From Heptranchias perlo (Eukaryota): DNA of 64,000 nt. The stretch lies in the NCBI RefSeq assembly GCF_035084215.1, contig NC_090346.1, positions 41,478,001 to 41,542,000 of the forward strand. The letters run 5' to 3'. The notes under the pieces are model-generated. The model did not search any database and was not told where the DNA came from. It worked only from the letters and a program-made list of their open reading frames with translations. A program made the position numbers and the translations under genes. Below, one piece after another: positions 3,209 to 45,408 of this stretch (within the stretch, counting starts at the first letter, position 1; the number at the start of each line of letters is the position of its first letter).

Positions 3209-3537
3209 ATGTTATAAAAGCATGTTTCCATGATATCCATTGCTGGAGTTTAAAGTGAGCAAAGGAGCGCGTCAAGGTGATTGTTAGCCTGGTCCAAAGA
3301 AGGCATCTCAAACAAAGCTAGGGATATCAGTGAATCTGTGATGTATTCGATTGGTGGTATGTTTTAGTGAGTGTGTGATGGCGATAATTGCTGATATTAC
3401 TAAATTTAGGTCAGAACGCTTATTTTTCAGATGCCCAACCCCAACATTCCTATTCATCATAGGCGTAGTTAAATGAGGCCAAACTAATTCAAAAATGATG
3501 GACAAAAAAATGGCAATATTTGAGTAAAATCAGGCCA
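3058..3537. mobile_element. Degenerate MITE-like element with Harbinger-type GGCC termini
   Basis: Left TGGCCTGAATTCATTCA versus reverse complement of right end TGGCCTGATTTTACTCA (14/17); internal (TA)n; no clean TSD. Confidence 0.45.
3177..3200. repeat. (TA)n microsatellite
   Basis: Perfect TA run. Confidence 0.95.
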
Positions 3538-4368
3538 ATTACATTTATTTTTGAAGACCCAACAGATTATTTTGGTAGGGTATGGTTAGCAAAATTTTAA
3601 TGATTAAATATTGCTTCTTTAACAAACTGAATTACCACTAGTTTACAGTAATGCTGGTCACTAAAGGCCCTATTTGTTCTTAGCTTGTTTAATAAAAGTA
3701 ATTAATAATATAATTTAATTTTTAATATTTATTCCCTCTCCATTTGCCGCTCCCCATCTTCAGGCTGTTAACTCACCCGTTTTAGAGACATTCAGATAGC
3801 TGTTGATCCCACCATGAATGCAATATTATTTTAGATAAACTTTACTCTTTAAAATGGCTCAAAATCACTAGCATTTCATTTTATCAGTATTGTTACTAGT
3901 CATATTTAGCATATTCGCACCATTACACTATAGGAAAATACACATTTTATCCAAAAATGCTTTAATATCATGCCAATATGCTTCTTGTGTGATAAACTTA
4001 ATTCATCACCTCAATTTGCTCTCAACACTACCAACACAAATGGGCAGACCCGTACTTCACCCAAGCTCAAAATACTCCATGCAGAGACAATCCAGATAAC
4101 ACAAAATCTAAAATATAGCTGTAATATTCGTTCTTTTTCACAGTTCAAGTACACACAGTATGAAAATTTCACACTCTCTCATTATGCTTTCCTAAAATCC
4201 TAGTGATAACACTGTTACATAAACAGAGGCAAGTGGTCAAATCAATTTTGCACTTACTTTCAGGAGTCACTAAAAAGGGTTGTGCATTCAAATAGAGAGG
4301 TACAATACTTGACCCAACCAAAGATGGAAATGAAAGAAGCAAAAATCCACTGATCTAACACAAACAGG

Positions 4369-4841
4369 CTACACATCCAGCTTTGGTCTTTTACAGGTTT
4401 TGCGACCAGTCCGTCGACTACGGGACAGTGACTCGCCAGACTCTGCAGTTTCTTCTTCATCTGGCTGCGTGAATGAGTCTGTCATCTCCATCATTTGGGG
4501 ACAAGGTGGATGCTGCAACAATGGAAGGAGAGCCTGAACACAATCTGCTAGCCGCTCCAGGGGTTGCCTGATGGCTGCAGCCAATTCTTGGAGATCGCCC
4601 CGGAGCTCTCTTATTTCCTGTCTGATGCCATGCAACTCCTCATTGCCATCCCCAAGTAATACATTGTGTTGCTCTTGGATACCCAACAGTTCTTCTTCAG
4701 AAATTTGCTTATGTACCCTCTTCCCTTGAGGCTGGAATGGACTTTCCTCTCGAAAGGTCACTGGTGATACAATGTCTGGTGAAGAATAATCCACATCAAA
4801 GTTTGGACCAATGTCTTCCTGTTTCACCTCAACAATGGTTT
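4369..4841 (-). CDS. Myb/SANT-like protein coding exon 2 (coiled coil and basic C-terminus)
   Basis: Acceptor TCCAACAG|AAACC joins exon 1 in phase (G+AA=Glu, ...NNAFH-E-TIVEVKQED...); open to the stop at 4369; total CDS 1107 nt = 368 aa. Confidence 0.75.
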
Positions 4842-5587
4842 CTGTTGGACATATAATGTGGACATGAAAAGACACTGTCCTCCAACATGCACACTGACCC
4901 ACTTGGATCCAGAAAGTTGGATGGTACTTTCAATAAACTGAACTTATTTATTTTAGTCTTTTGTGGGCATAATTTGTGATTAATACTTATTCCACTTTGC
5001 AAATTAAGGCTTAAGTAACCTGAATGCACAAATGATATCCACCTTTCCCCATTAAAATACTCTCCTATTTATATATACCAAAATATCAAGTACAATGCTG
5101 TTATTATGGCTTTCCCTTCCTTTTCTTAACTTACAAATAACATTTAAAGTAATGTTTTAATGCTATATTTAAGAGCTCAGGATGCTATACAAAGCAGTAT
5201 GGGCAGAGAAAATCCAGCTGAATGAGGCTAGGCATTGTTTTAAATAGTGATATGGGTAAAGAGAATCAAGCTGGGAGAACTGAAGGATACCGAGATTAGT
5301 TTTAAAAAGCAATACAGACATTAGTAGTGTAGCGAGTTACAGACTATGAAGTGGAGCAATACACATTCGTCCATGTAATTCCCCAGAAAGAAGTTCCCAA
5401 TTTCAATTGAACTGCTTCTACAAAGCCGGGACCACTACTACATCTTTGAGTAGCTTGTTGCGGAGAGGCAATGGCACAGGCCAAGAACCGAGTTGCCTGG
5501 TCACCTTCCCTGATGAGAAAACAGTGGGTGGTGTAGAGAATTTAAAGAGGTAGTGGAAAAAACCTTTGAAACTATCAAGTAGAAGAA

Positions 5588-5757
5588 TATAAGAACTAGG
5601 ACCAGGAGTAGGCCATACGGCCCCTCGAGCCTGCTCCGCCATTCAATAAGATCATGGCTGATCTCCGACTTCAACTCCACTTTCCCATCCAATCCCCATA
5701 TCCCTTGATTCCTCTAGAGTCCAAAAATCTATCCATCTTAGCCTTGAGTATATTCAA
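5588..5757 (-). mobile_element. CR1 LINE 3' end fragment in the intron of the Myb-like gene
   Basis: Reverse complement of the CR1 3' UTR (GGCCCCTCGAGCCTGCTCCGCCATTCAATAAGATCATGGCTGATCT). Confidence 0.9.
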
Positions 5758-6041
5758 GGGGGAAGACACACAAAGCACAGCAGAGAGAAATTAGGGAAAC
5801 TCTGTGGCAGTTGAAAAACATGGTTGCAGGATTTGGACTGCAATCTGCCCATTGACTACCTCAGATCTACATAATACCCATGCTTTGGACCTGAGTGATG
5901 ATTTTCATTGTGTTCTGGTTTGTAAAGGATTGGACCAAGAATAAGAATAGGTTTATCCATTGGTTATCTTAATGTGAAAGTTTGATGACTTGAGTTGTTC
6001 AACAACCGTGTTTATGAACAGGAGGTATAGAGGCCACTCAC

Positions 6042-6675
6042 CATGAAATGCATTGTTTGCTTGATGGTCTTGGGGCTGCTCCTGGACGTTCTCTTGTGTA
6101 GCATTCTGGCCCAGTGTGAAAAGCAAGACTGGCGGCCACTGGACTGGGCCCTGGTGGTCTGGCAACGGTTGCACTGGCACTTGCTTGGTGTGCCAAGTCA
6201 TCTGTTGGTGTAGCACTGGTTTCTTCTGCTGGCTGGGGACAGCATGTCTGCTGCTGGCTCTGCTCGTGCTGTCATCCCGGCTGGTGCCACTGGTACTGGG
6301 TTCACTGTCATTGCTGGTGCTGGGTCCCGCTGGGTCGTACTTGATGACGCCCATGATGTTCTCCTGGTGTAACGTTTGAGCAATTCTCTCATTCTGCATT
6401 GCCTCCCGTGCCAATTTGACCACTTTATCTTTGGTCCGGTGGCACATGTCGTACCACCTTTTCTTAATGTCACCTATGTCCCTAGTGCATTTGGATACAG
6501 CATTGACTTTCGCCAGTATTGAAAACCAGATCTTGTTTTTGGTACCTGGAGGCAATTTAGTATACCCTCTGCCAAAGAGCTTGTCCTGGTGCAGTGTCAC
6601 TTCACGGATCAGGATTTCTGTTTCGTCGTCGTTAAAATTCAGTTTGCGACGCCGGAAGGCCTCTTCCTTAGCCAT
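6042..6675 (-). CDS. Myb/SANT-like (trihelix) DNA-binding protein, Harbinger ORF2/NAIF1/MSANTD-like, coding exon 1
   Basis: MAKEEAFRRRKLNFNDDETEILIREVTLHQDKLFG...KNKIWFSILAKVNAVSKCTRDIGDIKKRWYDM is a typical Myb_DNA-bind_5-type pattern; strong donor CATG|GTGAGT at 6042/6041 (phase 1). Confidence 0.85.
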
Positions 6676-6930
6676 TTGTCGCAGCTGGCTCGCAACACTG
6701 GTCGAAAGGGCGACTTTTAAAATTAAAACGAAGCAGCCTCTCCGACAAAACGGGAGCTTAAAATGGCGACTAAGTTGCATTTGCACTCAGACTGGACGTC
6801 GCATTTCTGATGCGTTCTGGAAATACGAGAATTTGCGGCGTCACAAATTTGTCGCATCGCAAGTGGAGATGCGACAAAAATGTGCAAAAAAAATATATAT
6901 AAACTGACCAAATTTTCATAAATCTGGCCC
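6640..6930 (-). mobile_element. Putative Harbinger terminus: TIR-like GGGCCAGATTTATGAA plus subterminal TGCGAC/GTCGCA motif cluster
   Basis: Minus strand starts GGGCCAGATTTATGAAAATTTGG at 6930; repeated (T)GCGAC/GTCGC(A) motifs in both orientations just upstream of the Myb-like ATG. Confidence 0.55.
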
Positions 6931-7029
6931 TGGGCTTGTGAAAGACCCTGATCTCCAATAGATAAAGACCAATAAAAGCTTTCTAAGAGCTAAGAAACCG
7001 GTCCCCTTTCCAGTTGCACGCAAGTACAA

Positions 7030-7780
7030 TGCAAACCTGGTGAGTCACGTACGCTAATGCATTCCTGATCTCCAAACTGCAAAATACGTGGATGGTATTT
7101 GGTTTTTATTAATCACGGAGCTAAATATATCTCCCATGCTTTATATATATATATATATATATATCACGAAGTGGGGCATTCTGCGCCCAGAATTGGTCAG
7201 ATGCCCAATTACAAGAACCGCGCAACCGAACGGGTGCAAAGAAACGCCGACCTCCAGGCGACGCAGTGTCAGCTCATCACCGTCCCATTTAACAGGCTCT
7301 GTTGGTGCCATCAAAGGATTGTTTACTGAACATAAAGGGGGTTTCCTCCTCTCGACGCTAAGTTGGTGCAATTGCAGACGCATCTTGCCATACTTAGCTT
7401 TTTTTTTAAAAAAAAATAATAATTTACAAAAATCATCCCAAAACGTTAAATAATAAATTGCAAGGCTAATCGCCCCAGCCTATCTCTCGCGTCGCTGGCA
7501 TCTGAGCTTGCTGTGTGTTTGACACAAGTATTTCTAATAAAACGAACGCAAACAAACTTGCCTGTCGCCATTGGTGATCTTCTCAATGGACTGGAACGTA
7601 CAATAATATTCAGGGAGCCTTGGCCATAATGTCCTTCTGTTTCATATTTGGGAATTAAAACAAAAGTTATCTTACAGCATACAGGATAAAGCGTCACGAT
7701 ACAGCTGTTGCATGATGGATGGAAACTGGACGTAAGAAGCACATGTTTAAGTTTTGCAATTAAGTGTGAGTCACGAAAAC
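7030..7780. promoter_or_regulatory. CpG-enriched promoter-like region upstream of the Myb-like gene
   Basis: Locally high CpG density versus the flanks; TGAGTCA (AP-1-like) near 7041 and 7767; CCAAT-type motifs; (TA)n at 7143-7163. Confidence 0.45.
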
Positions 7781-8559
7781 TAATTCAAATGCCTGCTTCC
7801 AGACCCGTTTATTTTCATTTCTAGTATATCACCGCAGTGCAAAATCATTGCAAAATAAAAAACGAATAACATTGGATACTGGTATTGCATCACATGATCG
7901 GGTTTTTGCTGGAACAAAACAAAGACAGGTCCCAAAACAAAAATATAGACCAAAAATTCCAAAACTAGTCCACAAGCAGAGAAAACAATGAATGCTAAAG
8001 TACATGAATGCAAGAATCCTAGGAAGCTGCCAGGAGCAGACTGCCAGGGGAGGCACCCATACATGCCAATCTAGAAAACTAATAAAAGCTGATTAACAGC
8101 ATCAAAAAAAAAGTTGACGCAGACCCCCAAAAGCTAGGAACTCAAGGACAGTTGCGATTATAAGCCTATAACATGTGAAACCAAGTAGGTACACTTTGTG
8201 ACCTAAGCTGTAGCTCAACATTCCTTGACTTTTATTGGAGGGAAAAACACATTAGTGCATGAAAACATGAATGGGGAAATAACAAATGTTGACACATAAA
8301 ATTGCTGGTGACTGGGGAACAGTCATCAGGATTTTTTTAAAATTAGACAAACAATGATGCAATCTGGTTAATTTTAAGCACTTGTGTACTTCACGATTGA
8401 TAGGTTTTTGATTTAAAAAAAGGAAAAACAAAGTGATACTTGGATTTTCAACATTGGTCATTTTCCCAAAAGTTACCTCAACAATCAATATCCTACAGTA
8501 AGTCACAGTACTTCATTCAGTTCCTTTTGTAGAGACATTCTCTCATCCTGTAATGTTCC

Positions 8560-20629: not shown

Positions 20630-20842
20630 TCTTTTGTTTGTGTAAATCATTAGAGGATTGGAATATGGCTTTAATTATAAATTTTAGAAAGTGATTTGAG
20701 ATTTTGCTTAAAGTTCCCTTACCCCTGACTTGTTGCAACTTTTTAATAATCATAGACTCAGCAAAACATAATAGAAATATATTAATGGGTACTAAAACTA
20801 ATGTGGCTAAAAAGGCATTTTCCCCCCCCAGAAAGGGTCTTT

Positions 20843-21009
20843 ATGCATTGCAGGATACTTTCCCTCTTCATATCCTTCCTACTGGCACTAGCTGGACCAT
20901 GCCAATCTCTGGATAATGGTTTGGCGAGAACTCCCCCAATGGGCTGGATAGCCTGGGAACGCTTCAGATGCACCATAGATTGCAAGACGTACCCTGATGA
21001 CTGCATTAG
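20843..21009 (+). CDS. NAGA: alpha-N-acetylgalactosaminidase-like (GH27) coding exon 1
   Basis: Signal peptide followed by [25 protein letters not shown]; donor AG|GTATGT, phase 2. Symbol denotes the family; orthology is uncertain. Confidence 0.92.
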
Positions 21010-23364
21010 GTATGTATTTTTAGTATCATCTGGACATCAGAGAACTCTGTGACTTCTTTCTTAAAAAGTGTTCCACACCAGCCACTGCAGGGTTATCCAA
21101 CCTATGGTCTGTGAGCCCGTATGTGACCCACAAGCCGGGGCAGTACAGTCCACAAAGCCCAGGCAACTGAGCTCTTTGAGCCTGTGTTTCTTGCTCACTG
21201 GTTTGTTCTGTTTGACAATCATGAACCAAGGGGTTTCTAAAAGCCTTTTCTTCGTGCAGTTAGCTGATTGGTGAATAAATCCTAAATCAAAATACCAGTA
21301 TTAGCAGCTTGAGATATATGCAAATTAATGGTAACAATAACTTAAATTTTATATGTGACCCTTAAGGCACCATGCTATGCACTTCAAACAGCCAACAAAG
21401 GCAAAAAGCTAGGATGTTCCTGATTCAGTGGTTTCTACTAGACCTGAGATGAAGATGGCAATGATTAATCAGTTCAATTTTAAACATGTTCATTACCTGT
21501 TTAAGACTTTAGGACAAATGTTGTTACTAAAAAATAGTATAAGCTGCACAATCGCACAACACTGTATTTACTAGCAGTGCATGGAATGGCGCAAGTAAGC
21601 CTTACTTGCTGTACTAATTGATATGTCAGCTGTATATTATGTGAGTCAGGGAAACCAAGTTGGGCCACCTTCTAGAGACTGATGATCGATTATTTCAGAA
21701 CCATCTGTATTAAAAGAGCTCAGTTTTATTTTAGATTTAGTGAACAGTTCAAAGGCTGACCTGTTTCTAGTTTGGTATTCCAATACATAGCATTTATCCA
21801 TTTCCTATCATAGCTGCTCCTGCTTTGTTGCGTTACTCGCCGTAAGTACGTCGGAAACCGGGGCCAATATTGCACACATACATTTAACGGTAGAAGCACA
21901 TACAGTTGGTTGGGAGCACAGGTGTGGGCGAGAAGTTGTGGGCTTTTACCATGAAGTCTACAGTGGTAAAGTACTTTCTGTAAGACAGTAGCTCTCAACC
22001 TTTTATGTAGAAAGCCAACCCCAATTAACCTGACCCAGTATCTTGAAAGCACACATCTCTTAAATCAGACCTTTTAGGGTGTGAGCCGCAAGTTCACAAA
22101 ACATCACCCCAAGCTTCCTGTATGCTTGTCATCAAATGTTTTTTGCCTCTTTTTCCTCTTTCTATTATTTTCCCCAATTTTTCTCCCATTTTAAGCCATT
22201 CCACCCTCCATCTAATAGTACAGATTTTGAACAGCTCTACAATTTACATCTTTGAATTTGTTTCTCCCCCCACCACCACCACTTCCCCATTGGCAAGGAA
22301 CACTTCAATTGTGTGAGGTACTCCATCCAGTCATCCAGCAAAGAACATCCTTAACTGAGGCAAGTGAAATGGCAGGTGGGCTAGGATTTGGATCTGGAGT
22401 CAAGTAGTATTAAAGTCATTTAGCTTTCCTTGTGATGTTTGCATTGTAGTGTAAGGTTACGGTTTTATATTCATATGGTGGTACATTCTGACTGCTTCTA
22501 TTTTTTCCAATGCCAGTTTTGTAAGTTTATCATTTTCCAAATTCTGTAGGTCTCCCCATCTCTCACATCATTCACCATTTCCCCAGCTGCGAGTGGGTGA
22601 CCTTTTCTAAGGCCTATGCCAATAATGTTTGAATTGGCCTGTAGGAGGGTATGCAAAAGCGGTACAGATGATTTGCCATCTGATTTATGTTTCTATATAA
22701 TGTGAATTCGTTGTATTATTTTCCTTTAACATTTGGTGAAATAAAAATGTTTCATTCCAGTATAAGTGAGGTGATAGAATTTTGGTAGCTGTTTTGGACA
22801 ACCTACTGTTTAACTTCACCAGTCATTGCCTTAAAATTGGAAGTACTTTGTTATATATTATACTTGGGTAACAAACAGCTGGGAACGTAATTCCAGGCAG
22901 TAATACATTTCATGATTCAGATGATAGTTAAAGTGGTGGAGCTTTGTTCTAATGGTTTATGATGTCCTCCGAATACCTCAGTGTAATACTGCCTTGTAAC
23001 ATACTCCTATGTGTTTTATTTAAATACTCCAGCCAATGTCTAATGCATTTCTAGCTATGTGCTGTCCTATAAACTTTACCCCCCCCCCTTTTCTCCAGGG
23101 AAGCAATTCAATACATATCATCTTTATTTGGTGTGATCTTAGGCATCCCTGCTGGAGAGTGAAAACTCTGGATCTGGGGAATACTGAGAGAATCCCTGTT
23201 ATATTGTTTCATGTCACAATACTGGGGATACCTCAGACTTCTTTTTTAGACAGTCTGCAAACTCTACCTGATATTTGAGTACATAGCTTAAAAAAAAACC
23301 AAAATTCCTAAATGTGTAAATAAAACAACTTGCTGACCATCTTCTTGGCTTTTCAACCTAACAG

Positions 23365-23539
23365 TGAAGGCTTGTTTAGGACGATGGCAGACAAGCTGGT
23401 AGAGGATGGCTGGAAAGATCTGGGTTATCAATACATAAACATTGATGATTGCTGGTCAGCAATGGTGAGAGATGTTAATGGGAAGATTCAGCCAGATCCA
23501 GAACGATTCCCAAGTGGCATTAAAGCACTGGCTGATTAT
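23365..23539 (+). CDS. NAGA: NAGA-like coding exon 2
   Basis: [16 protein letters not shown]...[12 protein letters not shown]; canonical AG/GT; 175 nt. Confidence 0.95.
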
Positions 23540-23571
23540 GTGAGTAATTTTTTTAAATTTCAAGTGGACAT

Positions 23572-26013
23572 CAAAAACAACAACAGTAACAACTTGCATT
23601 TATATAGCATCTTTAACCTAGTAAAACGTCCCAAGGCACTTCACAGGAGCGTAATCAAACAGAATTTGACACCGAGCCACAAAAGGAGATATTAGGACAG
23701 GTGACCAAAAGCTTGGTCAAAGAGGTAAGTTACAAGGAACGTCTTAAAAGAGGAGAGAGAGGTAGAGAGGTGGAGAGGTTTACGGGGGAAATTCCAGAGC
23801 TTAGGGCCTAGGCAGCTGAAGGTACGACCGCCATGGCAGAGCGATTAAAATCAAGGATGCGCAAGAGGCAAGAATGGAGGAGCGCAGAGATCTCAGAGGG
23901 CTGTCGGGCTGTAAGAGATTACAGAGATAGGGAGGGGTGAGGCCATGGAGGGATTTGAAAACAAGGATGAGAATTTTAGAAGCAAGGCGTTGCTGGACCA
24001 GGAGTCAATGTAGGTCAGCAAGCACTGGGGTGATGGGAGAATGGGACTTGGTGCGAGTTTGAATACAGGCAGCAGAGTTTTGGATGAGCGCAAGTTTATG
24101 GAGGATGGAAGATGGGAGGTTGGCCAGGAGAGCATTGGAATAGTCAAGTCTGGAGGTAACAAAGGCATGGATGAGGGTTTCAGTAGCAGGTGAGCTGAGG
24201 CGGGGTGGAGACGGGCGACATTACGAAGGTGGAAGTAAGCGGTCTTGGTGATGGAGCGGATATGTGGTCGGAAACTCATCTCAGGTCCAATAGGACGCCA
24301 AGGTTGCAAACAGTCTGGTTCAGTCTCAAACAGTGGCCAGGGACAGAGATGGAGTCGGTGACTAGGGAACGGAGTTTGTGGCGGGGACCGAAGACAATGG
24401 TTTTGGTCTTCCCAATATTTAGTTGGAGGAAATTTTTGCTCAGCCAGTACTGGATGTCAGACAAGCAGTGTGACAAATCAGAGACAGTGGAGGGGTCGAA
24501 AGAGGTGGTGGTGAGGTAGAGCTAGGTGTCGTCAGTGTACATGTGGAACCTGACGTTGTGTTTTCGGATGATGTCACCAAGGGCAGCATGTAGATGAGAA
24601 ATAGGAGGGGGCCAAGGATAGATCCTTGGGGGACTCCAGAGGTAATTGTGCAGGAGTGGGAAGAGAAGCCATTGCAGGTGATTCTCTGGCTACTATTGGA
24701 TAGATAAAAATGGAACCAGGCGAGTGCAGTCCCATCCAGATGGACAATGGAGGAGAGGCATTGGAGGAAGATGGTGTGGTCAACCGTGTCAAAGGCTGCA
24801 GACAGGTTGAGAAGGATGAGGAGGGATAGTTTACCATCGTCACAGTCACATAGGATGTTATTTGTGACTTTGATAAGGGCCATTTCAGTACTGTGTCAGG
24901 GACGGAAACCTGATTGAAGGGATTCAAACATGGATTTGCTGGAAAGATGGGCTTGCATTTGGGAGGCAACAACACGTTCAAGGACTTTGGAGAGGAAAGG
25001 GAGGTTGGAGATGGGGTGGTAGATTGCAAGGACAGAGGGGTCAAGGATAGTTTTTTTGAGGATGGGGTGTGATGATGGCAGATTTGAAGGGGAGGGGGCA
25101 GTACCTGAGGAGAGGGAATTGTTAACAATATCGGCTAACATGGAGGCCAGGAAGGGAAGTTGTGTGGTCAGCAGTTTGGTGGGAATAGGGTTGCGGGAGC
25201 AGGAGGTGGGTGTGTTGGTCAAGATGAGCTCGGAGAGGGCAAGAGGGGAAATAGGAGAGAAACTAGAGAAAGATGTGAGTTCAGGGCTAGGGCTAGGAGG
25301 AAACCTTAGGGGAGCCTTAGGTTGGTGGATTAGGGGAAGGGAGGGAAGCAGCAGATGCAGCTGAACGGATGGTCTCAATCTTAGTGACAAAGAAATCCAT
25401 GAGCTCCTCGCACTTATTGTTGGAAGTAAGGATGGAGGAGGCAGGGGTGAGGGGTTTAAGAAGACAGTTTGTTGTGGAGAAGAGAAGCCGGGGGTTATCT
25501 TTGCATTCCAGGAAGAGTGAGCAGTTTTGGCAAAGATCAGGACCCAATAGATCATCATGTGGTCCAGCCAGATCTGGCGCTGAATTGCTAAACCAGCTGT
25601 CTGCCATAAACGATCAAATCTACGTCCCTTAGATGTATGGAAGCGGAGGTGAGGGCCATTCTAGGGGGAATGACCAGGGTGAGAGAGAGTAATGGTTTTA
25701 ATGGGGACAAAGGCATCAAAGGTAGAGTTGAGGGTGTGATTGAGCAGGTTGGTAGGTTCAGAAATGTCGTGGCAAATGGAGGGCCAAAGGCTAGACAGTT
25801 GGGAATCTGCAAGTGCAGGGGCGGACAAAGAAGGAAATGGGGTTGGGAGGGGGAAGGGGGATGTGGGTGGAGAGGGATACAATGAAGTGATCAGAGATGG
25901 CGCTATCCGTAATTGACACAATGGGAGTAGAGAGGCCACGTGAGATGGCAAAGTCGAGGTGGTGGCCGTGAATATGGGTAGAGGAGTTTATATGGAGGGA
26001 GAGATTAAGGGAG
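23572..26013 (-). mobile_element. L2 LINE, about 2.4 kb, frameshifted ORF2
   Basis: LNLSAAFDTVDH, GVPQGSILGPLLF and NFLQLNIGKT motifs; (TTG)n tail at 23572-23590. Confidence 0.93.
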
Positions 26014-27160
26014 TGATATCACTCAACCCAAGTTTTATCTTTATTGCATTGGTATCAGGCGTGATACACAGTGCAGCTCTGAGCTATAGTTCAGTGGGTA
26101 AGTGCACCAAGTAGCAACAATCTTAATGTGTTTGCACCATGTTATTGCATGATGCATTGGAATTATATTCAGAATGCCAGGGAGCAAATGATCTCACAAA
26201 TAACTGGAAGGCTAAAAGGGCCATTTCCTCCTTGTTTATGGAGGAGGCAAAAACAGAGGAGAAAATTGCACTGAGGCCATAGGGAACTCCTGTCGTGTCA
26301 GGAATCATTGATACAATAAGGGCAATTTTCAACCACCCCCTGGGCAGTAGCCTAGCAGAGTGGATTGCCCAACTATTGTAGAAACCAGCCGATTTTCATC
26401 CCATTGAAATCATTTTTTGCATTCAAGCTCCAGTATCTTGTTTCTTTTAGACCCTTATAATTGTGTGACTTCAGTTTGCCAATATTCTAGTAATATGGAA
26501 TGATTGCAATAGGAAATTCAACGAGTATTAAAACTCATAATAAAAAAAAATAGCCCTTTGTTCTTTCGTTATAGGCAATTGAAATGTGTTAGAACTCAAA
26601 GGTGCACTTTCAATTGATAGAAATTTTTAACTAGACAAATATATTTATGGAAAAAATGATTGAAACTAATTTTCAAATGCCTAAATTTGATCTTGTTTTA
26701 GTACATTGTACTTAGAATACATTTTTATTGTTTTTGCTTTACTTTTGAGGTTAGCTAAGGATCAGATATAAATAGCCATCAACCATTTATGACACTAGTC
26801 CTTTTTAAGGCACTGAGGACAAACCACAGAGTCCACTCACCCAAGAGACATTTTATACTAATAATCATTGTCAACAAGTACTTAGTCCCAATTATTTAGG
26901 AAAATGTTTAAAAATGGAAATAAGGAGCCCATTAAAAAAGTTAAAATAGCATTTTGTTTACTACAGTGAGAATGATTTGTAAAAGAATATTGATAACCTA
27001 CTGCCATTGAGTCAGCTACCTTCTTAAAGTAATGACTGAAGTATGTGTACATCTTCTAACTACAGACACTGAAATGGAACTTTATAGAGTGTCATATTTA
27101 CTCATGTTTTATCTTGATAGTTTGAGTTATTCACTTCTTGATCTTCATTGTTTATGCTAG

Positions 27161-27338
27161 GTTCATTCTAAAGGGCTGAAGCTAGGAATTTATGGGGACC
27201 TGGGCAATTCAACCTGTGGTGGGTATCTTGGCACCACACTGGAGACAGTTGACACTGATGCCAAGACATTTGCAGAATGGGAAATAGACATGCTGAAGTT
27301 TGATGGCTGCAATTCCAACTCCAGTGAAAAAGCAATAG
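27161..27338 (+). CDS. NAGA: NAGA-like coding exon 3 (catalytic nucleophile Asp in KFDGC)
   Basis: [26 protein letters not shown]...[10 protein letters not shown]; 178 nt; phases match. Confidence 0.95.
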
Positions 27339-27744
27339 GTACCTCCCTAATACCATGTAATAATAATGCGGCATTTAATTTATCTTGATGAATAAATGGA
27401 AGATACTTGGTAAAAAGCTACTGAATACATAATTTATCCCCTGACAATGACAGAACAGAATAATACACAAGTCAATATAAACTGATAATATAAGTTTATA
27501 TTCAAAGATTTAGGGAAAATAACAATATTCTACTTATCCTATCAGTGTATTAATTATATAATGCAATATTCTATTTTATTATTGTATCAATTTTATTTTA
27601 GTTTGGAATATTGTAAATAAATTTGAATTTCTTCCCTTCAGAAGTCTGTCCACCATATTGAAAATCAAATTGGTAGGGATTAAAATGGCAGATTATCAGC
27701 AGGGTTCACCCAGTGATTCACTAGTTTAAAAATATAATTAACTC

Positions 27745-28250
27745 AGCGATACAGGCCAGGTAGATCCCAGGTCCAATTCCTGGTCTACAGTGAGTTAGCT
27801 AGTCTCAGATGGTGCAGCAATATGAGCACTAGAATTGTTCTCAGCACACCTGAGTTGAAATGAGGAGAAACCAATATACCCATTTTTGTTCTTGACCACT
27901 ATCCAGTGACCTCTGCTAGAAGTGTGAATGTTGGGAGAAGACAGAATTGGGTCTGCTGTTAATTGTACCCATATGATTTATAGCAATTAGTGTTAATTGT
28001 ATTCAGGTGGTATGTATCAATTCAGAACTCTCATATCCATTTATAAGAGAGTTGATCTCGGGTCTGGGGTGGTAATGTGGATCTCTGTGAATAAAGGTTT
28101 GAAGCAACTGAAGACTAGGCTTCAATATTCTATCCTTCACCACCTGGCTATCCAGTTTATAACATCTGGCTGTCATACACTTACTAATGAATAATTGTCA
28201 CTTGGACAAGGTGACTGGCTCTTCTGGAGCTGTACTATGAAAAGGAAAAA
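27745..28250 (+). mobile_element. Old SINE family copy (unnamed)
   Basis: CCCAGGTCCAATTCCTGGTCTACAGTGAGTTAGCT...CTATCCAGTGACCTCTGCTAG is shared with 57870-58180. Confidence 0.5.
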
Positions 28251-29072
28251 ATGTCTTAAGGAGAGAAAATTGCTAGAAGAAAGGATTTTTTTGTTTTAAG
28301 ACATTTTGAAAAATAAAAATGTGTTAAGTGACTGAGAATCCCTTCTCCATGTATATATGCATTATGATGAGAATTACTTCTCTCTCCAACTATTGCTACC
28401 AATCACCCTATTAATGTTCTCTATGTTTGTAATATTGTACTTACAGCCTACGTATGGAACTGAAGCTGTAAAAGTGGCTTTCTATTTCCTGCACAGTATC
28501 TGGTTGAGTTGGCAAGATCTTTGCACTTAATTGGCTTTGTTATGGAGTTGTTAAAAATTCACACCAGTTCTGAGATTCACCACTAATAGGTGTAGCAAGT
28601 CACTTCATCACTCCTGCATTATCAAGTCTTCTTCACATGAAGTACATGAGGGTATTTATGCTTCCTTCATGTATCCTCTACCTGCTCCCTTGGTTTGAAT
28701 CTGTATGTTGTAGCTTGAAGATTTTGGGAAAACCATGATGTCCCTGACAAATGAATAACTTCTTTACCGTCAAATTTTGTTAACTACTCAGGGATATTTA
28801 CTTAATAAGAATTTCAACAAATGGAAGATTCATCTTTTGGTGGCAAGTCTGAACTAAGTTCTTACCACAAACTTTTAGGGCATAGAGGAGAACTTCCCTG
28901 TGCTTAATTTGGCCTGGGAAAACTATTAACTAAGTGTAAAATTAATTTAGTTTCCAGGAAAAAAAATCAATGAAGATTGAGAGTACATTCCATGCACACC
29001 CCAAGTTCACACTTTCTATTAAAGTGAGAAAAATCTGACTTTGATGAGAAACTGACTTTGTTAGGACATGGA

Positions 29073-29161
29073 GGGGGTGAAATTGACCTTAGGCGGTAGT
29101 GCAAAACAAGCAATAACGAATCGGCTGATTTTCTTTGCCATGCAAGACCAATTTCACCCCC
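29073..29161. mobile_element. 89-bp mini-MITE
   Basis: Perfect 13-bp TIR GGGGGTGAAATTG / CAATTTCACCCCC. Confidence 0.65.
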
Positions 29162-29347
29162 AAACTGTTTGATGAAGATTATTGAATTGTATTGTCTATT
29201 ACACAACAGTAACATTTTCATAAAACTCTTTTAATGCTTACATGTATTGTATTATGCTACCTAATGCTCCATATCTGAAACACTGTAGCACTTTGGTTGC
29301 TACTGTTTCATTTTTGCCAGTCCTAATGTCAGTATTCTATTCCCTAG

Positions 29348-29442
29348 GTTATCCAAAGATGAGCCATGCTCTCAATGCCACAGGAAGGCCAATCGTGTAT
29401 TCTTGTAGCTGGCCAGCATATGAAGATGGTCTACCACCAAAG
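29348..29442 (+). CDS. NAGA: NAGA-like coding exon 4 (specificity loop SCSWPAY)
   Basis: [31 protein letters not shown]; 95 nt. Confidence 0.95.
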
Positions 29443-30059
29443 GTGGGAGAAAGGAACCTTTTATTTCCCTCTCTTAACATTTTAACAATATTATGAATCT
29501 GTTATGGATTAGTGACCATGTACTGATATGGCTCAGTGCTGTCAATCTGCTCCCGTGTTCGTTTTGCCAGTAGATTATCAAATCCACAAGGCAGCAGAGG
29601 TATTTAGATTTATGGAGGATTCTATTGCTCTCCTTTCAGGCCTGGAAGGAAGGTTTTTTTATAAAATAAGAATAGTTACAAATAAACCAAGGAAGTGTAG
29701 CTGCCCTCAGAGATCGATCACTTTCACATCAATGAGAAGCAGTTTCAGATGAACAGACATAAAAGTGATAGTTCTGACTCTCGAGCACACTAAAGTCAAA
29801 CCACTTGGGCCTCTGTATAATAAGCCATGTTTAAAAACTCCCAGGTGGTCCACTGGTCCAACCTCGACCTTTTGCAAGCTTCATTTTCAATATCTTAACC
29901 TAACATTAGAATTTAACTTCTTCACATTGCTATCCTTCTCTCCCATTCTTCAAAAATCTCCACAAAACTCCTCTCTTTGAGCCTTCAGTCACCTCGTCTC
30001 TTCTACTTACTGCACAGTCCTAGGCTCTCCCAACAAAACACCGTGAGGTATTTCATTAT

Positions 30060-30832
30060 GGGCCAGAAATTACTCACCTGAGGACGCCACTCAATAATGG
30101 CGTCCTCTCCAACCACTGGCGAATCCATTGTGCAAGTTCGCAAATGTGCACGCGCAGTAAAAGCCTGAAATCGCAAAACTGCTCCCATTAATTCACCGGT
30201 GGATAGACAGTTACGAATTAAAGGGCCACCCTATGCTACAGTCAATAAAATCAGGAAACATTCGTAAACTTACTCATCTGCCCAGCTGGAATGAAGATAC
30301 TTACGCCACCAAAAGGTACGCTGGAAAATACCAACCCTACACTGCTTTTTAAAAGAACGGTGAATGTTAATGACTGCGAAACAGCAAAAAATTAAATTTT
30401 AAAAATGTGGAATGTCAAATTACTCTTATTTTAATATTTTTTGATCATTAAAAAAAATAAAAAATAAAAAATTAATTTTTAAAAAAACTTCTGTAAGTTT
30501 CATTAACTTAAATCATTTGCTTGGCTTTTTATAGTAAGGTATGTTAAATTTTTATTTACACTAACATAGACAAGTTCACTTTAAATGAATGAGTTTCACT
30601 TGCCTGCTTGTGGGCGGGACTTCTCTTCTTGACAGATTCTGTGGGCGTGGCTGCCATTCCCACAGAGTCTATTGGTGCAAAGGAAGGTGCGCTGATATCA
30701 CAGCACTGAACTGAGAAAAAACTTTAAATGGAGCAAGTGGACGTCAGAGACCTCGAGGTAAGTATTTTCGTTGTCTTTGTCCACAGGATGTGCGGACAGC
30801 CTTGCCATGCCAGTCAGAGCAAATTCCGGCCC
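30060..30832. mobile_element. Harbinger-like MITE with 3-bp TSD (TAT)
   Basis: TIRs GGGCCAGAAATTACTC / GAGCAAATTCCGGCCC (13/16); TAT on both flanks; internal similarity to 56667-57408. Confidence 0.75.
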
Positions 30833-30944
30833 TATGTATAACATCCTCTGTGAATGTAAAGAGTTTTGTGTTGTAGTTAACACATCACAATTCCAGGGTC
30901 AAGCCTGCTTACTGACTTTATGACAGAAAACTAAAGCTACGTAT

Positions 30945-31456
30945 CACTTGAGCTCATCCAAAACTCTGCTGCCCTAACTCGCACAAAATCCCATTCACCC
31001 ATCGCCCTTGTGCTCGCTGACCTACATTGGTACCCGATCCGGCAATGCCTCGATTTAAAAATTCTCATCCTTGTTTTCAAATCCCTCCACGGCCTCGTTC
31101 CTCTCAATCTCTGTAACCTCCTCCAGCCTTACAACCCTCCGAGATCTCTGCGCTCCTCCAATTCTGGCCTCTTGCGTATCCCCGATTTTCTTCACACCGC
31201 CATTGGCGGCCGTGTCTTCAGCTGCCTAGGCCTAAGCTTTGGAATTCCCTATCTAAACCCCTCTGTCTCTCTCCCTCTCACTTCTGCTTTAAGATGCTCC
31301 TTAAAACCTACCTCATTAACTAAGCTCTCGGTCACCTGTCCTAATATCTCTTTATATGGCTCAGTGTCAAATTTTGTTTGCTAATCGCTCCTATGAAGTG
31401 CCTTGGGATGTTTTACTACGTTAAAGATGCTATATAAATGCAAGTTGTTGTTGTTG
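30945..31456 (+). mobile_element. L2 LINE 3' end
   Basis: LADLHWYPIRQCLDLKILILVFKSLHGL; tail GCTATATAAATGCAAGTTGTTGTTGTTG. Confidence 0.9.
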
Positions 31457-31534
31457 TAGGGCAAGTGCTGTATTACTTTGCTAAGCTACCCATCATTGTA
31501 CTATACATTTTCTTTCCCTTCCACATTCCTTTAG

Positions 31535-31696
31535 GTGAATTACTCACAAGTTGCTGAACTCTGTAATCTTTGGAGAAATTATGATGATATTGATGACTCC
31601 TGGAAAGCTGTGCTAGGAATTATAGATTGGTTTGGAGACAACCAGAAAGTGTTGCAGACGGCTGCAGGTCCAGGAGGATGGAACGATCCAGATATG
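31535..31696 (+). CDS. NAGA: NAGA-like coding exon 5 (acid/base Asp in RNYDDI)
   Basis: [23 protein letters not shown]...[11 protein letters not shown]; 162 nt. Confidence 0.95.
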
Positions 31697-32918
31697 GTAC
31701 ATTATATGTAGCTAGTGCACATTTTGCAACAGTTTGCATTTCGGTCAACTACAGGATCATGCCTCAAAGCACTTTGCACTGAGGAGGGGAAAGCACAGTG
31801 GACAACTGACAAGAGGGAAAATGGAGAGGATTTGGGTGAGATTCCGATTGTATAGTCAAAAGCAAATTATTATTATATTAGTATTATTAATGCAAACTAC
31901 TTTGGTACAATAGAAGTCATACATCCAGTGACAGGTATGAAACATTTGTTTAATAACTGGTGTTCCTTGTTGAGTCAGAGGTATACTATTTTATAATAGT
32001 GTTACACATAATTCATTATCAGGGCTACTTTTATACAGTGTCTAAATAAGCCAAATTTGTTTTTATTACTTGGTATTTTATTACTTGATTTTTTTCCCCA
32101 ATGCTTTGGGGATAGAATTCCATGACTGTCCATTATTTTGTGAAAAAGGTAAAAGCCTATACTTTACAAAGCAAATCAAGCTGAGAGGCAGAGATTAAGT
32201 TAAAAACTTTTATTTAAAAGTTTAGTTAAAAATGTACTCAAATTCACCAACCGGTTTGTATTCAAATAATTTTCAAAAACACAAAAAATGAAATACTGCT
32301 TTGCACAGAAACAAAGGAATGGATTTTGACTCGAAACGGGTTTTCACGCTCTGGTGAACTAATTTCCTGGCCGCCAGAGGCAGCAGAAGGCCATGTGATT
32401 TTAACTGCTGGGCCTTATTTAAATACCACTGGACCACTTCTTGCCTAGAAGGAGTGGGAAGAGGACGTAAAGCAGCTGCTGGCAGGGGGAGATCGGGCAG
32501 CTGAGGGCCACCCGCCAGCTTCCAGGTAAGTGGCAAGGAGGGGTTTTGGGAGGTTCTCGTGGGATGGAAGGGGAGTGTCCGGGGGAGGGGAGGTCACACC
32601 ATTCTTGGTGGGACCTGGAGGAGCACTTCTGCTCTCCCTGGCCCCACAAAGGAAATGTTTTGACTGACCTGGAGGGCCTCATTGCCATCCCCACCAGCTG
32701 CCGCCCTGCTTCAGCCTGGCGAGAATGCTTCCTCGCTCAGGCCCCGGTTAAAATATGTAATAGAACTCTGATTTGTATCAATTCATGAGGTTCCCACCTG
32801 CTTAAGGCGGGCGCCTCATCTGCCTACAGAGCTTTGCAGGTTAATATTGGAGACGGTGGGAAAGTGGTGAGTTCCCAGCAGCTAAGTAAGCTGCTCGTTT
32901 TCAACTGCTACGCTTCCG

Positions 32919-43342: not shown

Positions 43343-45305
43343 ATGATGTGGAGATGCCGGTGATGGACTGGGGTGGACAAATGTAAGGAGTCGCACAACA
43401 CCAGGTTATAGTCCAACAGCTTTATTTGAAATCACAAGCTTTCGGAGCTTTGCTCCTTCGTCAGGTGAGTGAAGAGTTGCATAAAGGCACAACATATATA
43501 GTCAGAGAACAATGCCTGGTGATTACAAATAATCTTTCTAACTGCCCTTTATCACACCTCGGCAGAGAGATAATCACAGCAATCAATGGTGTTCAGACAG
43601 GTTAGTCAGGGAAACATTACATCCAAGAATACTGAGGTGGGGTCACAAGGGGTCAAATCAGAAAGACAGAGAGAGAGAGAGAGAGACCAGAAAGACAGAG
43701 AGAGAGAGAGATGACCAGTTGTATTAAAAACAGATAACTTTTTTTTGCTGGAAATCGCAGCAGGTCCGGCCATATTTGTGTATGGAGAACAAGCCAACTA
43801 CGACTTGAGTATGGATGACTCTACGTCAGGTGGCTATCAATTTCTGCTCGACGATTTTGCATTGTCGTGTGTCTCGAAGGCCGCCTTGGAGAACGCTTAT
43901 CCGAAGATCGGAGGCTGAATGTCCTTGACTGCTGAAGTGTTCCCCGACTGGGAGGGAACCCTCCTGTCTGGCGATTGTTGCGCGGTGTCCGTTCATCCGT
44001 TGTCGCAGTGTCTGCATGGTCTCGCCGATGTACCATGCTCCGGGGCATCCTTTCCTGCAACGTATGAGGTAGACAACGTTGGCCGAGTCACAGGAGTATA
44101 AACCATGTACTTGGTGGGTGGTGTCCTCTCGTGTGATGGTGGTATCTGTGTCGATGATCTGGCATGTCTTGCAGAGGTTGCCGTGGCAGGGTTGTGTGGT
44201 GTCGTGGACGCTGTTCTCCTGAAAGCTGGGTAATTTGCTGCGAACGATGGTCTGTTTGAGGTTAGGTGGCTGTTTGAAGGCGAGTAGTGGAGGCGTGGGG
44301 ATGGCCTTAGCGAGGTGTTCGTGGTCATCGATGACATGTTGAAGGCTGCGAAGAACATGGTGTAGTTTCTCCGCTCCGGGGAAGTACTGGACGACAAAGG
44401 GTACTCTGTTGGTTGTGTCCCGTGTTTGTCTTCTGAGGAGGTCTATGCGATTTTTCGCTGCGGCCTGTTGGAACTGTCGATCGACGAGTCGAGCGTCATA
44501 TCCCGTTCTTACGAGGGCGTCTTTCAGCGTCTGTAGGTGTCCATCGCGTTCCTCCTCATCTGAGCAGATCCTGTGTATTCGCAGGGCCTGTCCATAGGGG
44601 ATGGCCTCTTTGACGTGGTTAGGGTGGAAGCTGGAGAAGTGGAGCATCGTGAGGTTGTCCGTGGGCTTGCGGTAGAGTGAGGTGCTGAGGTGCCCGTCTT
44701 TGATGGAGATTCGTGTGTCCAAGAATGAAACCGATTCTGAGGAGTAGTCCATGATGAGTTTGATGGTGGGATGGAACTTGTTGATGTTATCGTGTAGTCT
44801 CTTCAGTGATTCTTCGCCGTGGGTCCATAGGAAGAAAATGTCGTCGATGTATCTGGTGTATAGCGTTGGTTGGAGGTCCTGTGCAGTGAAGAAGTCGTGC
44901 TCGAACTTGTGCATGAAAATGTTGGCGTATTGGGGTGCGAATTTGGTCCCCACGGCTGTTCCGTGTGTTTGGGTAAAGAACTGCTTGTTGAAGGTGAAGA
45001 CATTGTGATCCAGGATGACGCGGATGAGTTGTAGGATGGCGTCTGGAGATTGGCTGTTGTTGGTGTTGAGTACTGAGGCTGTCGCAGTGATGCCGTCATC
45101 GTGGGGATACTGGTGTAGAGTGCTGAGACGTCCATCGTGGTGAGAAGTGTTCCTGGTTCAACTGGTCCGTGGGTGCTGAGTTTTTGTAGGAAGTCTGTAG
45201 TGTCGCGACAGAAGCTGGGGGTTCCCTGTACGATGGGTTTCAGGATGCCCTCGATGTATCTGGATACAATGTCTTCACCTTCGACAACCAGTTCTTTACC
45301 CAAAC
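43343..45305 (-). mobile_element. Penelope-like retroelement (Neptune-like), 5'-truncated: RT plus C-terminal GIY-YIG
   Basis: MDVSALYTSIP, MGTKFAPQYANIFM, RYIDDIFF, LYRKPT, Cys linker CHGNLCKTC, VVYLIRC..WYIGET and VGEHF...H; one frameshift near 45103; 3' UTR with (GA)n and hammerhead motif. Confidence 0.93.
43432..43468 (-). ncRNA. Minimal hammerhead ribozyme-like motif in the PLE 3' terminal repeat
   Basis: UCAC-CUGACGA-A-GGAGC(AAA)GCUCC-GAAAGCUU-GUGA, followed by AAUAAA. Confidence 0.72.
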
Positions 45306-45317
45306 AGCAGCAATTTT

Positions 45318-45408
45318 CTGACGAAAGGTCTTCGACCTGAAACGTTCACTCTGTTTCTTTCTCCACAGATGCTGCCTCACTTGCTGAGCTTCTCCAGCAT
45401 TTTCTGTT
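45318..45408 (+). mobile_element. Penelope family B terminal module with hammerhead-like core
   Basis: CTGACGA-A-AGGTC(TTC)GACCT-GAAACGTT; remainder near-identical to 9958-10016. Confidence 0.7.

Follow-up and report, generated by a model that had tools for sequence, protein, structure and literature searches.

Several vertebrate genes, among them NAIF1 and MSANTD1-4, have been described as domesticated from the Myb-like open reading frames of Harbinger transposons, and the Myb exons of MYPOP, TSNARE1 and PRDM11 have been named as putatively Harbinger-derived (PMC9392472). Harbinger elements' Myb-like proteins are reported to bind a subterminal motif and to import the transposase into the nucleus (PMC9710019), and mouse MYPOP is reported to repress a Myb element (PMC6265261). 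The published surveys of such genes began from human proteins (PMC9392472, PMC9179366); one of them recorded no Harbinger in the elephant shark and called for other cartilaginous fish to be checked (PMC9179366).

The gene described here lies on the minus strand of a 64-kb window of Heptranchias perlo NC_090346.1 (the whole stretch of DNA that was analysed; all coordinates are positions in it). It is a spliced, single-copy gene that is under selection in sharks and rays, and it was likely domesticated from a Harbinger Myb-like gene. Its long product probably acts in the nucleus as a DNA-binding regulator pairing via a coiled coil, and a short, Myb-less product would damp the long one. A first-pass annotation of the same DNA had already proposed a domesticated transposon gene, a proposal that is supported by the absence of near-identical copies, by 16 orthologs, by spliced contigs and by a dN/dS of about 0.1. 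The features of the locus are the following (X numbers denote sequencing runs, organisms C and D are species aligned with the window, and the C1 sister is a decayed relative elsewhere in this genome):

7562 to 7747, minus strand: alternative first exon, E0, with a GC donor at 7561, an ATG at 7571 sharing the reading frame of exon 2 and five short upstream ATG frames (joint 4841/7562 in X5; X10 contig)
7008 to 7211, no strand assigned: two short conserved non-coding blocks (7008–7049 and 7173–7211) within the CpG-rich promoter stretch (organism C differs at 2 of 42 nt and at 4 of 39 nt; CpG o/e 1.04)
6915 to 6930, minus strand: TIR-like end that is not conserved and is probably what is left of the ancestral element's 5' end (10-mer of the same type at the C1 sister)
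6747 to 6879, minus strand: conserved block of subterminal-like character, rich in GCGAC repeats, ahead of the Myb ATG; it may act as proximal promoter and carry self-binding sites (conservation in organism C, repeat count, alignment with the C1 sister)
6042 to 6675, minus strand: coding exon 1, Myb/SANT trihelix (aa 10–86, 6648–6418) and S/T/Q/P-rich linker (translation, PF13873, fold model; RNA-type contigs in X5, X6, X9 and X10)
4842 to 6041, minus strand: intron, phase 1, GT..AG, 1200 nt (sequence and contig joint)
5583 to 5757, minus strand: CR1 3'-end insertion inside the intron (match to a CR1 of the window)
4369 to 4841, minus strand: terminal coding exon common to both splice forms, with VK[QR]E (4827–4816), predicted coiled coil (4698–4513) and basic tail (translation, helix prediction)
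3270 to 4368, minus strand: 3' UTR, its extent being that of the contigs (those of X5, X6 and X9 reach 3216–3272)

Translation of the window DNA bore out the gene structure that the first-pass annotation had claimed, namely two exons joining in phase through a canonical intron into an uninterrupted protein: from the ATG at 6675, exon 1 (6675–6042) is joined across the phase-1 intron (6041–4842) to exon 2 (4841–4369, the stop being at 4369), and the product has 368 aa with zero internal stops. The claimed N-terminal Myb/SANT-like domain was recovered as a match of residues 10–86 to PF13873 (E 1.7e-17; score 63.5 bits, the threshold being 21.7), and the aromatic residues F7, F14, F34, W50, W74 and Y75 are invariant in 11 aligned rows. 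Its model consists of three helices (pLDDT 78), and the best structural match of the model is the DNA-binding domain of Zeste (Z 8.0, rmsd 2.7 over 70), that of GT-1 also being matched (Z 7.2); both Z values are middling for helical domains. A fold search with the whole protein gave zero matches at E 0.001. Exon 2 is predicted to form a single long helix with a coiled coil at residues 260–321, of which one heptad position is hydrophobic in 10/10 aligned rows. The VKQE motif, which we take to be a SUMO-type site, the heptad coiled coil and the basic tail, all three listed in the first-pass annotation, are present in exon 2. The CR1 copy placed inside the intron was found as well, as a 3'-end piece at about 5583–5757 matching the 3' end of the window CR1 at 19.3–20.6 kb (92.7% over 82 nt). 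The protein is on record as XP_067859470.1 (Heptranchias perlo, RefSeq), a model with 35 extra N-terminal residues; this extension was rejected, being missing in all 10 aligned orthologs, whose starts match the ATG at 6675. A further short motif, D[SA]FTQ at residues 333–337 in exon 2, is kept in 15/15 orthologs checked, and we take it to resemble a dynein light chain LC8 anchor.

Contigs were compared from three runs, X5 and X6 (one sample) and X9, with the DNA run X1 as contrast and with X10 from another organism and another study; the runs are called RNA-type by guess, none being on record as RNA. The predicted splice junction of the long form, 6042–4841, was found in contigs of two of the three RNA-type runs (X5 and X6, the same sample) and is not among the joints listed for X1 or for X9, two joints of the table lying outside those listed. 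A second joint in X5, 4841/7562, with GC..AG ends, leads from the upstream exon E0 to exon 2 and skips the Myb exon. The X10 contig at 7562–7747 bears a 95-nt loose end, whose 30 displayed letters equal window 4812–4841, and because of this and the X5 joint the Myb-skipping splice is found in two species and two studies. The gene has two splice forms sharing exon 2. No joint from E0 to the Myb exon is listed in the contigs examined, though a strong acceptor is present at 6817, and such a splice was dropped. The exon 1 contigs stop at 6691–6779, with one small contig at 6894, which suggests that the long form starts nearer than E0, with the reservation that contigs cannot show starts. E0 was also tried as the first exon of the ZC3H7A-like neighbour and rejected, since a separate CpG island belongs to that gene, about 1.5 kb before the window. 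The contig that covers exon 2 in X9 extends 180 nt into the intron (4842–5024) at a depth above that of exon 1, pointing to a possible extra start or acceptor in the species of that run.

The last ATG of E0, at 7571, opens a Myb-less frame of 160 aa through exon 2. The Myb-less transcript might also be untranslated or regulatory only, a shift of promoter use away from the Myb exon, with the gene acting via the long form alone; we consider this unlikely, if well worth weighing. It would fit the five ATGs upstream of 7571 in E0, each with a short frame, the GC donor, and the result that no 160-aa protein was found among 80 candidates of the protein collection, in which the one match was a gene model that has exon 2 alone, preceded by an N-terminus unrelated to this gene. 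Against it stand the recurrence of the junction in a second species, the collinearity of the block 7554–7731 (E0 and donor region) in organisms C and D, the in-frame position of the last ATG, and the C1 sister, which keeps an open 176-aa exon 2 beside its broken Myb exon.

The region upstream of the gene is CpG-rich from about 6.5 to 8.0 kb (CpG o/e 1.07, 1.04 and 0.69). The suggestion that the gene is possibly driven from a CpG region at about 7.0–7.8 kb is thus only partly upheld: the span is wider than was thought, and the region does feed a transcript, but this is the Myb-less one. Directly before the Myb ATG, the block 6747–6879 differs from organism C at 7 of 133 nt, compared with 30 of 388 in the Myb exon, and GCGAC occurs six times in 6676–6930 (255 nt; P about 0.02 against 2000 shuffles). 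The stretch 6880–7007, which includes the TIR-like end, gave no alignment at 80% in organisms C and D. The end at 6915–6930 is real, and the statement that there is only one such end agrees with our failure to find a convincing partner for it: an inverted 10-mer at 3675, with one mismatch to the end at 6930, was rejected because the match is within chance. The 16-mer of the TIR-like end has four matches in the genome, none of which extends, and a MITE family shared with this end was sought and not found.

Conservation of the gene extends over sharks and rays. A protein search returned 11 clusters at 64–100% identity, covering 17 named species including Heptranchias perlo, and the orthologs looked for in related species are on record at full length in 16 other named sharks and batoids (64–89% identity). 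They come from a hexanchiform, a sawshark, a horn shark, the basking shark, a catshark, a houndshark, four carpet sharks, stingrays, mobulids and skates, and no chimaera or bony vertebrate is among the 11 ortholog clusters. In a profile search of 1.84 billion representatives, three elasmobranch rows had E values below 1e-80 and the next dropped to 1e-36; for the skate cluster, Logan contigs of 1.3–1.5 kb contain whole frames of 353–361 aa. The gene had been called lineage-specific, which holds if the lineage is that of all sharks and rays sampled; it is not specific to this species, and an older lungfish/lizard ortholog may exist. Across nine orthologs identity is 84–96% in the Myb domain, 79–95% in the coil and 49–82% in the linker, and VK[QR]E is present in 15/15 orthologs checked. 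Between Heptranchias and organism C, 26 of the 30 differences over 6300–6687 are listed, 19 of them synonymous and 7 non-synonymous, giving a dN/dS of 0.085, or of 0.135 if the four unlisted differences are all non-synonymous (one species pair, 125 codons); both values are well below 1, as would be expected of a domesticated gene. Judged by these sequence comparisons, the gene is under purifying selection across sharks and batoids. The DNA is collinear over 6300–7997 in organism C and over 6300–7861 in organism D, beyond the TIR-like end, and the locus is therefore the same in both, at least locally. Its neighbours in the window are NAGA-like exons (PF16499) at 20786–31708 on the plus strand, together with one exon resembling EME1/EME2 (E 6e-4 to 2e-3). 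TPR exons found 24 kb before the window are presumably those of ZC3H7A, and we assume that the NAGA/alpha-galactosidase-like gene beside this ZC3H7A-like gene is possibly a paralog lost in mammals.

In the 3.25-Gb genome, and among the best candidates scored, the Myb exon has three matches (itself at 100%, and two others at 51% and 38%), exon 2 likewise has three (itself at 100%, 35% and 28%), and the 455 bases upstream of the gene match only themselves. The gene is single copy on this measure, with no near-identical copy, and the many near-identical TIR-flanked copies that the first-pass annotation had named as evidence against domestication were not found in the genome search. With a transposase query set drawn from 30 loci of this genome, zero matches were obtained in 164 kb around the gene, both control regions being positive with the same search, in accord with the earlier remark that no DDE transposase was seen in the window. 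The genome itself is rich in Harbingers, with at least 150 DDE_Tnp_4 matches and at least 150 PF13873 matches, most of the PF13873 loci examined being multicopy. A young 4.18-kb two-gene family (L045:3299-7477, L047-L050) has copies 93–99% identical and open transposase frames of about 500 aa. The Myb proteins of the genome's transposon families are only 21–31% identical to the Myb domain of this gene, and an autonomous parent element with intact transposase was not found in this genome. Elsewhere, at C4:57,909,737-57,918,100, lies a Myb gene in single copy, its first exon open; it clusters with the Myb exon annotated in bird PRDM11 isoforms (57–59% over the domain core, the second exon also being similar) and is probably another domesticated gene. 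The transposase beside this paralog was rejected as a partner, since it belongs to a copy, 90% identical, of the young 4.18-kb family and is accompanied by a Myb gene of that copy.

Decayed relatives connect the gene with the transposons. The PF13873 family is common to this gene and to the Myb genes of the genome's transposons. The C1 sister (C1:33,516,948-33,520,164), itself single copy, is a two-exon locus with a frameshifted Myb exon, an open coiled-coil exon 2 (35% identity) and a phase-1-like acceptor. About 210 nt before its dead Myb exon lies a TIR-like 10-mer of the 6930-end type, and TIR-like 10-mers stand 3.2 kb apart at this locus; the 10-mer pattern, which was set after both ends had been seen, has two matches in 552 kb of background strands. 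The 5' region of the sister aligns with 6676–6930, and 3 of 3000 genomic controls scored as high. A second relic, at C14:33,390,122-33,391,190, resembles exon 2 and contains a stop; a convergent transposase trace 550 nt off is weak, scoring 13.9 bits against at most 9.8 in 200 HMM controls, and with a tblastn E of 0.002 that was reached by 3 of 60 controls. The shared PF13873 family, the TIR-like and 5' matches of the C1 sister and the C14 trace together make a Harbinger origin well supported, with no intact parent found. Very probably, such an element lost its transposase before the split of sharks and rays, and its 5' end would have been kept as the upstream region of the gene. As a separate observation, the C1 sister may survive as a Myb-less gene.

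The relation to other Myb-domain genes was assessed in two trees of 85 and 43 hand-picked Myb-domain rows (93 columns). Both place the elasmobranch genes close to, but inside none of, NAIF1, TSNARE1, a lungfish/lizard gene and a Myb exon that is annotated within POLR3F in coelacanth; AU tests rejected 0/6 pairings (p 0.09–0.31), the joint-clade p-AU being 0.31 with the lungfish/lizard gene, 0.16 with MYPOP and 0.12 with NAIF1. The Myb domain is 29–31% identical to NAIF1, against 82% within NAIF1 (lungfish vs teleost-type row), and 32–41% identical to the MYPOP/TSNARE1/PRDM11 type, against 72% within MYPOP-type rows. It is also 29–31% identical to a locus of this genome that we take to be MSANTD4-like. 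In coelacanth, RefSeq POLR3F isoforms (P0039, P0187) are spliced to a frame with Myb domain and coiled coil that is related to the shark gene.

The gene could instead have an older origin in jawed vertebrates, as the elasmobranch counterpart by descent of a Myb gene without a name of its own in lungfish and lizards (XP_043930146.1, XP_060616989.2), which RefSeq calls 'MYPOP-like' or 'NAIF1-like', both names being similarity labels; domestication would then not be shark-specific. The two are reciprocal best hits, this locus being the best match of the lungfish/lizard gene in this genome (E 1.5e-18) and the lungfish protein P0038 being the best blastp match outside elasmobranchs (49%). The lungfish protein also carries VKQE, and, as given above, a single clade of both is not rejected. 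However, their Myb domains are only 39–46% identical, whereas each group is 72–90% identical within itself, and they are never sisters in either tree. Exon 2 is nearer to MYPOP (E 2e-7) than to the lungfish/lizard gene (0.085), no chimaera record is among the matches named, and the relic transposon end and the decayed sisters suggest a separate insertion. On balance we find this ortholog improbable, and prefer a domestication in the shark and ray lineage. The lungfish/lizard Myb gene (P0038, P0052, P0044) is conserved in its own right and is absent among the Harbinger-derived genes named in PMC9392472.

Neither a true NAIF1 nor a true MYPOP was found in this genome with bony-vertebrate queries, among the best 150 of 5016 and 118 of 7704 candidates and in an assembly that may have gaps. 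Two NAIF1 queries rank this locus first in the genome, at 34%, far from the likeness among NAIF1 Myb domains. Sharks might accordingly have lost NAIF1, and the protein might stand in for it, either bringing HARBI1 or Harbinger transposases that are active into the nucleus or restraining them. Import of a transposase bound by Myb-like proteins is reported (PMC9710019), and the genome has the young 4.18-kb Harbinger family, with copies as alike as 98–99%. We regard such a role as doubtful: the candidates scored were a fraction of the total, NAIF1 is reported in cartilaginous fish (PMC9392472), and the Myb proteins of the young family are so distant (21–31% identity) that common DNA sites or partners are questionable. 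Finally, a non-autonomous Myb-only Harbinger copy, intact by chance, is hardly credible, for although the TIR-like end and the abundance of Harbingers in the genome would agree with it, the gene is single copy, has orthologs in sharks and batoids and a dN/dS of about 0.1, and is collinear beyond the TIR-like end in two species.

For the domesticated host gene that we prefer, the following mode of action can be proposed. The trihelix would bind DNA, possibly at the GCGAC repeats in the subterminal stretch that the gene has kept, and the coiled coil would dimerise the protein, so that the long form would regulate as a dimer in the nucleus, probably by repression. SUMOylation of the conserved VK[QR]E would support this repression, and the 160-aa form would be translated, compete via the shared coil and titrate the long form as a dominant negative. 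Taken jointly, DNA binding by the trihelix, dimerisation by the coil, SUMOylation in support of repression and a dominant-negative short form make a tentative scheme, which we judge somewhat less probable than an even case. Far more speculative, and rather improbable, is the wider picture of a helper gene tamed together with its own binding sites and given a DNA-blind twin by an added exon, which would form a self-regulating switch on an old transposon end, the pair replacing the role of NAIF1 or policing active Harbingers.

No published work on this gene was found in the literature searched, which included few subscription papers and no supplements, and the supplements of PMC9392472 may list shark genes. 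The gene adds an elasmobranch member, from a lineage outside the published surveys, to the regulators made from Harbinger Myb-like genes, and it can serve to test whether a protein was domesticated along with its cis-element, and how a first exon newly gained separates a coiled coil from a DNA-binding domain. If real, the absence of NAIF1 and MYPOP from this genome would change the published distribution of both genes. Elsewhere in the window, long frames for a reverse transcriptase occupy 43826–45345 on the minus strand and end, as judged by eye, in a GIY-YIG-like part, as in a Penelope-type element; the stretch is CpG-rich and therefore probably young.

Among the known systems, NAIF1 and MSANTD1-4 (PMC9392472) are most alike in kind, being single-copy Myb/SANT trihelix genes of about 300–400 aa under purifying selection with no adjoining transposase; the shark gene differs from them in its distribution, to date sharks and batoids only, in keeping a TIR-like and subterminal-like 5' relic, and in its Myb-skipping splice form. 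With the Myb exons of MYPOP, TSNARE1 and PRDM11 it shares the PF13873 subfamily, and the coiled coil of its exon 2 shows a weak similarity to that of MYPOP, but it forms a separate clade in both trees and stands alone as a gene, whereas theirs are exons joined to host genes. The lungfish/lizard gene is similar in length and layout, and differs in the low identity of its Myb domain. The Myb-like protein of Harbinger3_DR (PMC9710019, PMC9392472) is likewise a trihelix helper, and its 9-bp subterminal target is a model for the retained GCGAC block; in contrast to that element, the shark gene has no transposase gene in the 164 kb searched around it and no convincing second TIR, and exists as one copy under selection. 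The class of gene is thus a known one, as described in PMC9392472, and what is distinctive here is the conserved Myb-less splice form.
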